Shown piece by piece: positions 22,299-42,624 of a DNA stretch of 42,624 nucleotides. This DNA is from Escherichia phage vB_Eco_Maverick. How positions within the stretch are numbered: the first letter of the stretch is position 1; every line of letters begins with the position of its first letter. Where the stretch lies: the sequence record NC_073077.1, one strand, 5' to 3'. The notes below the pieces were generated by a model, which saw only the letters and a list, made by a program, of their open reading frames with translations, was not told the DNA's origin and searched no databases. Position numbers and translations under genes: made by a program.

Positions 22299-22812
22299 TT
22301 AATCTTCCAGTTCGAAATAGGTTTCGACGATTTCTTTTAACTCTGTGTGGAAGTCTTCGACGTCGTCATCTTCCAGCTTGGCGATTGATTTTATCTCGAA
22401 CGATTCCAGCAGGTCGTCGAATTCGTCGTTCGCATCGTCGTCATCACCACCGGCGATAATCGCGGCATACTGTTTGATTTCGTCGCGCATCTCCGCCAGC
22501 GGATCGGCATCTTTCTTGCCTTTGCCTTTCGCTTTTTTAGCCTTAGCCGGTTTTTCGTCTTCGGCGTCTTCGTCGTCGTCATCTTCTACGACTTCTTTTT
22601 TGGCCTTACCCTTCGCCGGTGCTTTTTTAGCTTTAGCCGGTTTTTCGTCTTCGGCTTCATCGTCGCCATCTTCGACAACTTCTTTTTTGGCCTTAGACGG
22701 CTTCTTGTCGTCCTGCTTACCAACGGCAGCGCCAACGGTTTCATAATGCTTAGCGATGACTTCCAGTGCTACTACGCCGCGAGTGATCAGGTTTACGATT
22801 TGCTCAAACATG
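22299..22812 (-). CDS. charged-repeat protein (acidic blocks alternating with Lys/Ala-rich blocks)
   Basis: Start at MFEQIVNL with GGAG Shine-Dalgarno 8 nt upstream; contains two near-identical ~78-bp DNA repeats (22531-22608 and 22621-22696) encoding KKEVVEDxDDEAEDEKPAKAKKA; the longer frame to 22991 lacks an RBS. Confidence 0.55.
22531..22696. repeat. intragenic tandem repeat, two ~78-bp units with a ~90-bp period
   Basis: gcttttttagccttagccggtttttcgtcttcggc... repeated with a few substitutions. Confidence 0.8.
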
Positions 22813-23048
22813 GTATATCTCCGATTGGTTAAGTTTAGGTGTCGGCAGTTAACTTCGTCGGTGGCCTTAACATATTGCCAGGTTGCGCGTTCTCCCGTTC
22901 GGGTAGTGGACCTGGTTATATAATCACGGTTGGGAATCCTGACACTTCGATCCGGCCCCTGCGTTGCCCCTCTCCAGTTTGCGTCCTGCATCCTGTCGAC
23001 GGAGTGAATGATAGATTGGTTGCAGGATGGGTGTCAACAACTAATTTC

Positions 23049-23213: not shown

Positions 23214-23543
23214 ATGAATATCAAAGAAGCAATTGAAGTGTTATCTAATGCAATCCGCGGCGAAGCGGGTAAATCCTGGTATTACACAAATGCGGTGGAT
23301 ACTCTGTTATTTGAAGTGTCCAGATTATCGCGTGCTGAGAAGGAGCTTACCGCGAAGCTGGAATTGCTCAACGGCACGGCAGCAAGCAAGCTGCAAAAAC
23401 ACAATGAAGAAATGGAAGAATACAAAAAGCAGGTTATCCGTTTGCGCAATGAGGGAAAGTCATGGGCAATGATCGCCGAGTTGACCGGAATTAATCAGAG
23501 CACAGTGCGCTCCTGGGTACGCAATAATAAAACTTCAAAGTAA
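23214..23543 (+). CDS. helix-turn-helix DNA-binding protein (putative transcriptional regulator)
   Basis: 109 aa with coiled-coil centre and C-terminal HTH (KSWAMIAELTGINQSTVRSWV); AGGAG Shine-Dalgarno; first gene of the plus-strand block. Confidence 0.55.
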   Translation: MNIKEAIEVLSNAIRGEAGKSWYYTNAVDTLLFEVSRLSRAEKELTAKLELLNGTAASKLQKHNEEMEEYKKQVIRLRNEGKSWAMIAELTGINQSTVRSWVRNNKTSK

Positions 23544-23553
23544 GGCAACGGCA

Positions 23554-25818
23554 ATGAGCTTGATTAAATTCGCTGTAACACGACCCGCTAAAAAAGGCGA
23601 AAAAGCCAGGGCGGAAAACTTCCAGATGACTACCGAAGAGTTTTTCGAATTTATCAATGATGCGAAAGAAATCTCCTCGGTGCATATCAACAAAACGGAA
23701 GATAAAGCGGAGTATGCGCGCCGCAAGCGTAAGGCTGATGGGATTGTGGCTTATACCAGTGACGGATTACGCCGCAAGACCAGTGCGGTGGATCGCTCGA
23801 TCCTGTTCTTCGATATTGACCGTACCGACACCCGCACCCTGCGCCGCTGCCGTAAGGCGTTCATCGACGCGGGACTGGAACATGTATTTCACACCACAAC
23901 CGGCGATCGCCACCCGCTGAAAGGTGGCACGCGTTGCGCTCGTTTCCTGGTGCTCACTGACAAGCCTGTACCGGCTGAAGACCTGGGCCGCGTCCAGTAT
24001 GCACTATTACACCAACTGGGCCTGTCAGATGTGGACTTCGACGATTGCACGAAAGACACAAACCGCCTTATGTACCTGCCTCACCAGCAATCGGTTGTTA
24101 AGTGTCACTACGGCAAACGTGCCCGCGTCCGTCGTCTGCTGCGCCTGGCGGATAAGCTGGGAGTGGAAAAAGAGGAAGTACGCCGCGAACTAACCCAGGG
24201 CGATGACGGCGTGGCGGACGGCATTCTGGATTGGTGCTTCCAGGCCGGATTCGAACCGCTGTCGTCCGGTCGTGGTTATGAAGTGCCATGCCCGAACGAA
24301 CATCTGCACAGCGGCGAAGGGTCGACGGCTATCATGGTCAAGGATGGCGAGATCCGTTTCAAGTGTATGCACACCGGCAACGAGTGTTGCTCGGAACTGA
24401 ACAGACACCAGCACCTGGCGCTACGTCTTATCGGGATCCCGGACCACCTGAACGTCGAACCGCACAACATGTCACGTAAGCAAATAGCCGCCATCCTCCC
24501 AGGTCTGGACGACGAGGAAGTGGAATCGTGCTATGAACATATCGTTGATGCGGTTGGCGACGGCGACGAGTACGGCGGATGTACGGACGCAGACCTGGAC
24601 AACGAGCCGGTTGCACTGTTCAGTAAACACGACCCGATCATCGAGGGGTTGATTAACTTCAAATCGACCTGGTATATGGCGGGCGAGTCGAACATCGGTA
24701 AATCGTTCTACGTGCTGGGCCAAATGGGTGCTGTTGCCGCGGGTATTCCGTTCGGTGGTGCGAAGGTCGTCCAGTCTCATTGCTTCTATTTCGACGCGGA
24801 AGGTGGCGAAGCCTCCAACCAGCGTAAGGAAGCATTGCAGATTAAATATGAGCACGACCTGGACAAGCTGCACATTATCGATCTGCAATCACGCGGCTGG
24901 GATATCACCAGCAAATCCGGCTTGCGTGAAGTTATCAGCTTCATCAACCGCACCGCTAACGGCGAGCCGGTTGGCCTGGTGGCGTTCGACTCACTCAACC
25001 AGACTGTTGCGCTGCGGTCCGCCGATGCTAAACCGTTCGACGAGAACAACGCCAGCGATATGGGCGAAGTGGTCAAAGCGCTGAAGGCCATTGCGGAAAA
25101 TACAGGCGGCAGTGCGGGCGTCATCCACCACCCGGCGAAAGGTGCAAACGGCAGCAGATCCCCCCGCGGGTCCGGCGCGCTGCATGGTGCTGTTGATTCT
25201 GCGTTCTTCCTGGAACAGCCGGACGACAACCAGCCCGGACAACTGAACCTGTATCACGAGAAGGCACGTAACGGCATCAAGCAAGCGCCGCGCGGATTCG
25301 TCCTGCTCAAGTGCAAGGTTAAGGTGGATCTCCGCAAGTCCGAGGCGTTCGAAGCCCACCAGTCCACCAGCACCGGGCCGGACTTCGGTGACGTCGTTGC
25401 CGGTTGGGACGTCAAGCCGATTGCATCCACGCCTCGCGACGAGACTCTTTACCTCGTACCTGTCGCCCTGGCACCGTTCGCTATCGAACAGGCGAAGGCA
25501 GCGGGCAAGGCCGCAGTTAAGGAAGAGAACACCGCCGGACCGCGCACCGAAAAAGAAAAGGTACTTTACGCGGCCCTGGAAAAACTGATGGAAGATAACC
25601 CGGACCATACCGGATTCAGCAAATCGGCAATTGTCCGCCAGGCTGGGCTTGCGAAAGGTGGCACATCGACGAAGGCAATTGACGATATGGTCGAGCGCGG
25701 CGTGCTAGGTTTTTATACAGACCCACACACCGGGGCCATCTATGGGTCGTCGAATATCGTCATCAAAACGAATATACCCATCACGCTTTCGGCGACCGAC
25801 GACGACCTGAAAGATTAA
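23554..25818 (+). CDS. DNA primase-helicase (primase-polymerase-like N-terminus, RecA/DnaB-type ATPase, C-terminal DNA-binding region)
   Basis: N-terminal acidic motif FFDIDRTD and a Cys/His cluster (CPNEHLH...C..H); Walker A GESNIGKSFYVLG and Walker B LVAFDSLNQ; C-terminal winged-helix-like segment FSKSAIVRQAGLAKGG. Confidence 0.75.
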   Translation: MSLIKFAVTRPAKKGEKARAENFQMTTEEFFEFINDAKEISSVHINKTEDKAEYARRKRKADGIVAYTSDGLRRKTSAVDRSILFFDIDRTDTRTLRRCRKAFIDAGLEHVFHTTTGDRHPLKGGTRCARFLVLTDKPVPAEDLGRVQYALLHQLGLSDVDFDDCTKDTNRLMYLPHQQSVVKCHYGKRARVRRLLRLADKLGVEKEEVRRELTQGDDGVADGILDWCFQAGFEPLSSGRGYEVPCPNEHLHSGEGSTAIMVKDGEIRFKCMHTGNECCSELNRHQHLALRLIGIPDHLNVEPHNMSRKQIAAILPGLDDEEVESCYEHIVDAVGDGDEYGGCTDADLDNEPVALFSKHDPIIEGLINFKSTWYMAGESNIGKSFYVLGQMGAVAAGIPFGGAKVVQSHCFYFDAEGGEASNQRKEALQIKYEHDLDKLHIIDLQSRGWDITSKSGLREVISFINRTANGEPVGLVAFDSLNQTVALRSADAKPFDENNASDMGEVVKALKAIAENTGGSAGVIHHPAKGANGSRSPRGSGALHGAVDSAFFLEQPDDNQPGQLNLYHEKARNGIKQAPRGFVLLKCKVKVDLRKSEAFEAHQSTSTGPDFGDVVAGWDVKPIASTPRDETLYLVPVALAPFAIEQAKAAGKAAVKEENTAGPRTEKEKVLYAALEKLMEDNPDHTGFSKSAIVRQAGLAKGGTSTKAIDDMVERGVLGFYTDPHTGAIYGSSNIVIKTNIPITLSATDDDLKD

Positions 25819-25928: not shown

Positions 25929-25978
25929 GTGTAGTGTAAATATAATGAATAGTTATGCAGTTTTATTGCATAAAGTAG

Positions 25979-26128
25979 GCGGGACAGAAAGCGGGACAAA
26001 CAGGGGGCGGGACAAAGCGGGACAGCACCCCCGTCCCGCCCCGGATGACGCGGCTTCCAGAGGAGCGGGACAGCGGGACAGCACCCCAGTCTTTCAGACT
26101 AGACGGGGGTCAACGGCCCCCCTCGTCT
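25979..26128. repeat. iteron cluster: six direct GCGGGACA octamers plus one inverted copy, ending in a 28-nt GC hairpin (internal copy)
   Basis: GCGGGACA at 25979, 25991, 26007, 26017, 26065, 26073; inverted GTCCCGC at 26033; hairpin agacgggggtcaacggcccccctcgtct at 26101-26128; TGCATAAA box at 25967. Confidence 0.85.
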
Positions 26129-26295
26129 GAGACTGAATAAAATCCGGGGATTGCAAAATACACGGCAGCATGATGCGAAGTGCGGTCGTCGATGAACTAG
26201 GCAACCAATGCGGGTTGTATTATGCTGAGTGAAAAATGCAGTTTTCAGCCACAGCTGATATCGATCAACTTTTTCATGCGCGTGATTAATATTGG

Positions 26296-42009: not shown

Positions 42010-42323
42010 TTGAGGCGGCGCGACGCTTTTATGGCCCGCCGCCACCCTCCGAAGATTTAGCCGCAAGTTTATGGGGCGCGGCCCCCGAAGATGTTTGTCC
42101 ACCTGTTGCGCTGTGGCCCGACAACGCGAAGGTAGTCGCAGTCTTCACAGATTGCTCCACGCAATGGCGCACCGGATTTGGTGGCGCATACGGCATCGAC
42201 TACGGCGTGCTGGAGTGGTTATTTAAGATGCACGGTATCGAAAACGAACAGCGCGCGTTTAAAGATATCAAGCTAATGGAACGAATAGCGCTTGATGAGA
42301 TGGCGCAGCAGAACCACGCATAA
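41647..42323 (+). CDS. tail assembly chaperone G-T fusion, made by -1 programmed frameshift at 42000-42006
   Basis: After a -1 slip on A_AAA_AAC the reading frame stays open for about 105 codons (…LIEAARRFYGPPPPSEDLAASLWG…) to the TAA at 42321-42323; this frame has no in-frame start of its own. Confidence 0.6.
42000..42006 (+). other. -1 ribosomal frameshift slippery heptamer A_AAA_AAC
   Basis: Heptamer sits in the zero frame of gene G three codons before its stop; X_XXY_YYZ pattern. Confidence 0.6.
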
Positions 42324-42327
42324 TGAA

Positions 42328-42621
42328 GCGGGACGTCCCGCTTTGTCCCGCCCTGTAAAACCGCATATCTAATCACTTTCATTGCATAAACTCAAAGCGG
42401 GACAGGCGGGACGTCCCGTTTTGTCCCACCCACGAAATGTGCATACCTATTCGAATTTCGTGCATAAAACAAGCGGGACAGAAAGCGGGACAGACAAGGG
42501 GCGGGACAAAGCGGGACAGCACCCAGTCCCCGCCAGTGCTGCCGCGGTTTTCAGCCGATCGGGACAAGCGGGACAAAGCCCAGTCTTTCAGACTAGACGG
42601 GGGTCAACGGCCCCCCTCGTC
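42328..42621. repeat. iteron cluster: GCGGGACGTCCCGC palindromes, about seven direct GCGGGACA octamers, two TGCATAAA boxes, ending in the same 28-nt hairpin (terminal copy, continues into bases 1-200)
   Basis: Palindrome at 42328-42341 and 42406-42418; GCGGGACA at 42397, 42473, 42485, 42501, 42511, 42568; TGCATAAA at 42383 and 42461; hairpin at 42594-42621. Confidence 0.85.
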
Positions 42622-42624
42622 TGA

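Follow-up and report, generated by a model that had tools for sequence, protein, structure and literature searches.

The helicase-primase gene and its family

Here we describe a helicase-primase gene of Escherichia phage vB_Eco_Maverick (sequence record NC_073077.1) and the short direct repeats (iterons) that follow it. The whole stretch of 42,624 nucleotides (nt) that was analysed is called the window. The gene occupies 23554..25818 on the plus strand and is an open reading frame (ORF) of 754 amino acids (aa) plus the stop codon, with an ATG start. A primase-helicase had been proposed at exactly this place from the letters of the DNA (hereafter the original prediction). The ORF list confirmed the frame, which carries both the motifs of an archaeo-eukaryotic primase (AEP) and an AAA_25 core. 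Its DNA is 100% identical to CS16C_043, annotated as 'putative helicase-primase' in Escherichia phage vB_Eco_CS16 (Dhillonvirus, LR999870.1), and copies of the gene at a coverage of at least 80% were found in 153 phage records. In addition, PHROG 3228 'replicative helicase-primase' matched the full length with 1142 bits. Thus, the gene was already known and annotated, and the open questions were the claims about its domains and the link to the repeats.

Relatives of the protein were gathered from 98% down to 44% identity, and the family alignment used below included 28 sequences with 45-100% identity. For the gene and its flanks, we compared 50 viral contigs and 10 relatives from annotated or metagenomic records, which gave 48 distinct full-length relatives.

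Iteron modules

The repeat GCGGGACA occurs 18 times in the window, while 2.0 ± 1.4 copies were expected and none of 100 shuffles reached 18. Iteron array 1 (25979..26080, plus strand) begins 160 base pairs (bp) past the stop codon of the helicase-primase gene and consists of six direct copies of GCGGGACA (at 25979, 25991, 26007, 26017, 26065, and 26073) and an inverted partial copy at 26033-26040. Directly upstream of the first iteron, the A+T profile revealed a stretch with 78% A+T (25939..25978). It includes GAATAGTTATGCAG, which is conserved in distant relatives, and is a candidate unwinding element. The module is closed by a conserved G+C-rich hairpin (26088..26134) with a fold energy of -13.4 kcal/mol (z = -3.6 against shuffles), and this hairpin is kept in the second module and in a relative with 68% identity. 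Furthermore, repeats beyond chance, an AT-rich neighbour, and an initiator gene close by together form the layout of an iteron-type origin. Judged from the sequence, module 1 may be a replication origin.

The second iteron module lies at 42320..42624 (plus strand), continues into 1-135 where the window ends overlap, and has extra palindromic GCGGGACGTCCCGC units. This module of ~190 bp occupies non-coding DNA flanked by the genes for the tape-measure chaperone and the tape measure, and when it was aligned with module 1 and the module of a relative, the mean column identity was ~82%. Salmonella phage STP-1 has only one equivalent cluster of repeats, which follows the helicase-primase gene.

The window ends (1-127 and 42498-42624) are identical, and the iteron positions there are offset by 42497. 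Thus, the window is an assembly of ~42.5 kb that is either circularly closed or has terminal redundancy, and compared with LR999870.1 it is permuted. GC skew was also considered as an origin marker. However, its minimum at 22-23 kb falls on the divergent switch of transcription, and it is therefore uninformative.

The winged helix and the repeats it probably reads

The C-terminal region had been predicted to be a separate winged-helix-like domain, and the topology in a model of the C-terminal fragment agreed with this, as did fold similarity. The domain covers aa 664-738 (25543..25767, plus strand), has the helix (H) and strand (b) order H1-b1-H2-H3-b2-wing-b3 that, with the fold similarity, places it in the winged-helix class, and its predicted recognition helix begins at GGTSTKAIDDMVERG. 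When the relatives were compared, the winged helix was the fastest evolving of all domains. A profile of the C-terminal part also matched BurrH (PDB 4cja) with a summed E of 8e-21. This match came from a short motif of the helix-turn-helix core (GFSxAEIVKIAGxxGG, alignment at aa ~685-705) summed over 20 TALE-like repeats, none of them individually significant, and the resemblance is probably a chance match by convergence of a helix-loop-helix motif.

A repeat array was found in the non-coding gap directly 3' of the gene in 42 of the 48 distinct full-length relatives. The repeat is lineage-specific, and the types were GCGGGACA, GGGGGAGA, AGGGATAA, CGGACAA, TGTCGGAA, GGGATGA, ACTCGCAA, TTGCGA, and TGTGCGGAA. 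The GCGGGACA type belongs to Dhillonviruses, including relatives at 68% and 83% identity. The flanking framework of the arrays is partly conserved, and GAATAGTTATGCAG is an example of this.

Natural recombinants among these relatives were the most informative. Compared with L003, L034, and L050, the loci L041 and L044 have 84-99% identity in the AEP domain, the zinc module, the helicase domain, and the linker, and only 41-43% in the winged helix, and they carry CGGACAA in place of GGGGGAGA. Likewise, L048 is 85-99% identical to L045 and L046 up to the linker and 49% identical in the winged helix, and its repeat is TGTCGGAA and not CGGACAA. L051, which has the repeat TGTCGGAA, shares with L034 96-98% identity in the zinc module and the helicase domain, 82% in the AEP domain, 76% in the linker, and 52% in the winged helix. 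The iteron type therefore changed together with the winged helix in all three independent recombinants. In addition, each recombinant winged helix had its closest counterparts in phages whose repeat is the same (L041 to L010, 68%; L048 to L051, 70%; L051 to L040, 84%), and in all three recombinant pairs the DNA identity falls ~300 nt before the stop codon, where the winged helix begins. We also tried to predict the iteron type from the percent identity of the winged helix, which failed to separate the cases; the types were separated only by the comparison of recombinants and by the start of the recognition helix.

The original prediction had named the C-terminal domain as the candidate for iteron recognition, and the joint switch of winged helix and repeat in three recombinants supports this. 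From these comparisons, the winged helix most likely docks the protein onto the short repeats after its own gene, and winged helix and iterons together would make up a specificity cassette that related phages exchange.

Other readings of the repeats

A small gene of 109 aa (23214..23543, plus strand; annotated as gp47-like) ends 10 nt before the helicase-primase start. Its C-terminal helix-turn-helix (HTH) at aa 65-105 was matched by Pfam HTH_23 / Sigma70_r4_2 (E ~2e-6). The two genes are probably co-transcribed, and in phage HK578 the orthologous gp45-gp46 pair was described as one operon (bioRxiv 10.64898/2026.07.10.737580). It could be supposed that this HTH protein or a host protein binds GCGGGACA, and that the winged helix only binds DNA non-specifically or docks a partner. 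We regard this as unlikely. In relatives, the upstream HTH protein is of the Xre type and varies by two residues at most among phages with three iteron types, whereas every change of iteron comes with a change of winged helix; thus, the Xre-type protein was rejected as the reader. Furthermore, phages with different helicase backgrounds share an iteron type when their winged helices are related (L041 with L010; L048 with L051 and L040), and the array keeps its position although the upstream gene is non-homologous between Dhillonviruses and Guernseyvirinae-like relatives. However, several observations limit the case for recognition by the winged helix. The upstream HTH protein of Dhillonviruses belongs to another family than the Xre type, and the rejection above covers the Xre type alone. 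The coding DNA of the winged helix touches the repeats, so linkage alone could co-transfer both. Moreover, in L035-L038, L042, and L043 (43-45% identity), two terminators and convergent genes follow directly after the gene, and no repeat array was found within 900 bp of it.

That plain terminators occupy the same position in the iteron-less subgroup also speaks for another explanation, in which the iteron module is mainly transcriptional, as a terminator, attenuator, or operator for the region downstream of the replication operon and for the tail operon, and binding by the helicase-primase is autoregulation. Also in its favour are the stable, conserved hairpin at the end of each module, a terminator that GenBank places within array 1, and the position of the second module among the clustered tail genes, which is odd for an origin. 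However, the hairpin has no T-run, the terminator scan reported none at the module, and no Rfam family matched. Six to seven repeats and an AT-rich stretch after an initiator gene are, moreover, the arrangement of SaPI (the Staphylococcus aureus pathogenicity islands) and of many plasmid origins. A comparable layout was described for plasmid pRN1 (PMC4234260). Taken together, we consider a mainly transcriptional module quite unlikely and prefer the reading in which the winged helix recognises the iterons.

The AEP domain

The N-terminal region had been predicted to be AEP-like, that is, a primase-polymerase rather than a Toprim primase, and the conserved AEP motifs and the predicted structure bore this out. 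The catalytic domain covers aa 1-205 (23554..24168, plus strand). Motif I (hhhDhD/E) is ILFFDID at aa 83-89 (nt 23806-23820), with D87 and D89; the acidic FFDIDRTD motif (aa 85-92, nt 23806-23829) pointed out in the original prediction is this motif. Motif II (sxH) is TTGDRH with H120 (nt 23896-23913), and motif III (hD/E) is VDFDD with D163 (nt 24031-24045). Conservation was examined in the 28-sequence family and in ~145 aligned distant representatives; a profile search of the N-domain against 1.8 billion representatives found 1498 relatives. D87 and D89 do not vary within the family and are present in 144/145 and 145/145 of the distant representatives, respectively; D163 is invariant in the family and present in 145/146; and R130 is invariant both in the family and in the ~145 distant representatives. 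H120 is retained in at least 90% of the family. In most distant representatives, motif II reads S/T-T-x-S-H, two columns earlier, and variation at this position is known from PrimQH-type AEPs (PMC5862659).

The structure of aa 1-345 was predicted from a 17-sequence alignment, with a mean confidence (pLDDT) of 84 and values >90 across most of the first 200 residues. The Foldseek search with this N-terminal model matched S-2L PrimPol (E = 1.5e-5), and the top structural matches, which establish the AEP catalytic fold, were all AEPs and none Toprim. In Pfam, BT4734-like_N (PF08800, an AEP family) matched 4 of 17 family members (best E = 1.8e-6) and not the window protein itself, for which neither Pfam nor NCBIfam has an N- or C-terminal family. 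Comparison of the N- and C-terminal parts with solved structures, by single sequence and by profiles, gave nothing useful. Distant relatives of the N-domain are fused to AAA_25, VapE/DUF5906, DUF3987, DUF927, or PriCT_2, the usual AEP partners in mobile elements. The N-terminus is thus best described, from sequence motifs and the predicted fold, as an AEP primase with an intact DxD/H/D catalytic set, and de novo primer synthesis is its predicted function.

A DnaG/Toprim-type bacterial primase, as in T7 gp4 or P4 alpha, would be the other possibility for this region, and the domain prediction could have revealed one. No Toprim or DnaG match appeared in the Pfam, NCBIfam, and PHROGs domain searches or among the top fold matches, and motifs I-III of an AEP are conserved. 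We found no support for it, and the database name 'helicase-primase' says nothing on the type of primase. The fold search already refutes a Toprim primase here, and we give it practically no chance.

Two Dhillonvirus-type relatives, P0004 and P0005, match the window protein at ~95-100% identity beyond aa ~205, while their AEP domain is much more divergent (60% identity of P0004 over aa 1-345), and both carry Leu instead of the motif II His. This suggests that the AEP domain is another module that is swapped and that changes in motif II can be tolerated.

The putative zinc module, the helicase, the linker, and the tail

The AEP domain is followed by a putative zinc-binding module (aa 220-345, 24211..24588, plus strand). 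A Cys/His cluster had been noticed in the original prediction; it is real and invariant in the family, and it belongs to a separate module after the AEP domain. The cluster is C246-x5-H252-x18-C271-x-H273-x5-C279, followed by H285 and H287 (nt 24289-24414). All seven residues are invariant in the 28 sequences, and five of them (C246, H252, C271, H273, and C279) do not vary either in the ~31 distant representatives with this module. The ligand spacing C-x5-H-x18-C-x-H-x5-C presumably resembles the CHC2 type of primase zinc domains. In the model, three short strands are followed by helices (pLDDT 73-87). No Pfam family matched the module, and the fold searches with the 345-aa model were dominated by the AEP domain. 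To judge from its conserved residues, the module probably binds zinc.

The RecA/DnaB-type ATPase core of the original prediction holds as well. The RepA/DnaB-like helicase domain, with a RecA fold of the superfamily 4 (SF4) type, covers aa 346-600 (24589..25353, plus strand). Pfam AAA_25 matched aa 357-531 (E = 2.4e-19; 70.2 bits against a curated cut-off of 27) and was the sole Pfam match in the protein, while NCBIfam gave no match. The Walker A motif, GESNIGKS (aa 377-384, nt 24682-24705), is intact and invariant in the family alignment, and RSF1010 RepA (1g8y) gave a weak match over HHPAKG. The domain is predicted to be a hexameric RepA/DnaB-like ATPase with unwinding activity.

The linker (aa 601-663, 25354..25542, plus strand) contains a low-complexity Ala/Lys stretch and PRDETLYLVPVALAPF (aa 627-642, nt 25432-25479). 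Its invariant residues are P622, P627, R628, T631, L632, L634, P636, A638, P641, and F642. Few stretches of the protein are as conserved as PRDETLYLVPVALAPF, although its model confidence is low, and it may attach to an adjacent subunit or to a partner. Behind the winged helix, the C-terminal tail (25768..25815, plus strand) has a pI (isoelectric point) of 4.1 and ends in the conserved acidic peptide ATDDDLKD (aa 747-754, nt 25792-25815), in which D751 is invariant and L752 nearly so in the family. T7 gp4 and SSB recruit partners by acidic tails, which ATDDDLKD resembles, and the tail might be a partner-docking element.

A genome-wide heptamer and other features of the window

In the window, CGGCARC (a 7-mer with the extended consensus aACGGCA[AG]Cg) is present in 104 copies where ~15 were expected, a ~7-fold enrichment (e.g., at 171, 661, 1183 ... 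42544). Salmonella phage STP-1 (L004) has 94 copies against 16 ± 3.6 expected. Among L002-L052, the 7-mer was enriched 4.4- to 11-fold in 50 of the 50 loci with a full-length relative of the helicase-primase, and only 0- to 3-fold in nine loci with the helicase domain only; the enrichment was 1.9-fold in T1. In Jerseyvirus wksl3, whose protein lacks the Cys/His module, it was 3.9-fold with a shifted preference. The copies are spaced at ~400 bp and occur on both strands, in sense and antisense orientation, in every codon phase, and in coding as well as non-coding DNA, and no strand switch at the iteron modules was seen in the window or STP-1. AEP primases with defined recognition sequences exist, such as those of pRN1 (GTG) and NrS-1 (TTTGGTTA). 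It is conceivable, and in our opinion quite improbable, that CGGCARC is a priming signal read by the AEP primase of the helicase-primase; it could equally belong to another gene common to these phages. If it were the priming signal, it would be an unusually long primase recognition sequence under genome-wide selection, and together with the winged-helix/iteron cassette one protein would set both the start of replication and the starts of Okazaki fragments.

The 9-mer ATTGGTTGC occurs 16 times in the window, where <1 copy was expected. Six copies lie near array 1 (25830, 25884, 25919, 26201 on the minus strand, 26291, and 26322), and the ten others are scattered (9759 ... 36743). The related forms ATGTTGGCTGC, GCTGCCAAC, and GCGGCCAAC border the arrays of relatives. 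With its 16 copies scattered genome-wide, ATTGGTTGC was ruled out as a locus-specific part of the origin; it might serve as a promoter or operator. In addition, an ORF on the minus strand (22299-22991), annotated as hypothetical, encodes a highly charged repetitive protein with KKEVVEDGDDEAEDEKPAKAKKAPAKGKAKK twice and adjoins the divergent promoter region upstream of the replication operon. Rfam showed no known RNA family anywhere in the window.

Comparison with known systems

In function, P4 alpha, SaPI Rep/ori, and pRN1 ORF904 are the closest parallels, and all of them differ in the primase or the helicase family. The alpha protein of phage P4 combines primase, helicase, and a C-terminal winged-helix origin binder in one chain, and octameric iterons are found at ori and crr; the work on alpha, ori, and crr is reportedly that of Ziegelin et al. 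in 1993 and 1995 and Yeo et al. in 2002. Like the window protein, alpha is one polypeptide, and the two GCGGGACA modules here are reminiscent of the two separate iteron clusters of P4. However, P4 alpha has a Toprim primase and a superfamily 3 (SF3) helicase instead of an AEP and a RepA-like SF4 helicase, and there is no sequence relationship. In RSF1010, helicase, primase, and iteron binding are found on three proteins (RepA, RepB', and RepC) and not on one. SaPI, with its Pri-Rep-ori system, has the primase on a protein of its own and a helicase from another family. The SaPI helicases are self-loading (PMC9371898).

The pRN1 operon includes a gene for a small DNA-binding protein, the AEP-helicase-winged-helix gene ORF904, and an essential cis element within the ~166 bp downstream of the gene (PMC4234260, PMC2777425). 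This is the same order as the HTH gene, the helicase-primase gene, and the iteron module here. However, pRN1 is an archaeal plasmid with an SF3 helicase, an AEP of the Prim-Pol-proper type with a helix-bundle domain, and no such iteron array.

Kazlauskas et al. (2016) reported that RepA-like helicases are often fused to AEPs, with gp43 of corynephage BFK20 as the exemplar (PMC4889955). Gp43 also has an N-terminal AEP and an AAA_25 RepA-like helicase, and it comes from a siphophage with a family-A polymerase encoded next door. Its helicase part is 24% identical to the window protein (E = 7e-12), and similarity was not detectable elsewhere. In contrast, its AEP belongs to another AEP family (Pfam Prim-Pol, PF09250), the protein has 983 aa, and the Cys/His cluster was not detected.

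The order AEP, PriCT/Zn, P-loop helicase, and winged helix was described in silico in 2018 for PrimQH and all3500 of the PrimPol-PV1 supergroup, which occur in phages and mobile elements of Proteobacteria with RepA, DnaB, MCM, VirE, DUF927, or DUF3987 as helicase partners (PMC5862659). The domain order is the same here, and the distant homologues of the N-domain carry the same set of helicase partners. This likeness rests on the described architecture, and PrimQH, all3500, and BT4734-like are the candidates for the assignment. Kazlauskas et al. (2018) suggested that the C-terminal winged helix reads the origin, without identifying cognate sites (PMC5862659), whereas here candidate cognate sites and their covariation with the domain are presented. 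The architecture has thus been known since 2018; what is added is the candidate sites and the swappable winged-helix/iteron cassette.

A model for replication initiation

We consider it rather likely that this one chain is a self-contained replication initiator, helicase, and primase, with the winged helix reading the iterons. The winged helix would dock protomers on the 8-bp GCGGGACA iterons of array 1 and of the second module in the tail-gene region. The protomers would then assemble on the array beside the 78% A+T stretch and open it, and the RepA-like ring helicase would load itself. Next, the AEP domain, assisted by the zinc module, would lay primers, and the family-A DNA polymerase of the phage (CS16C_033) would extend them, perhaps recruited via the acidic tail. 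The domains in this model come from prediction and the covariation from comparison of relatives; we inferred in which order the steps occur, that the modules act as origins, and what the tail does. Published genetics of phage HK578 fit an initiator-helicase-primase: the mutations by which it escapes P2 OLD lie in the orthologous helicase-primase, Gp46, and in the gp45-gp46 promoter (bioRxiv 10.64898/2026.07.10.737580).

Dhillonviruses and Guernseyvirinae are common coliphages and Salmonella phages in phage collections and therapy work, and the start of their replication has not been described. Narrowing the origin reader to a swappable domain of 75 aa and an 8-bp repeat gives a directly testable model. 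Furthermore, the model would explain the recombination hot spot at the end of the gene and in the DNA beyond it, and it would give a context to the escape of HK578 from P2 OLD through mutations in the orthologous gene and its promoter.

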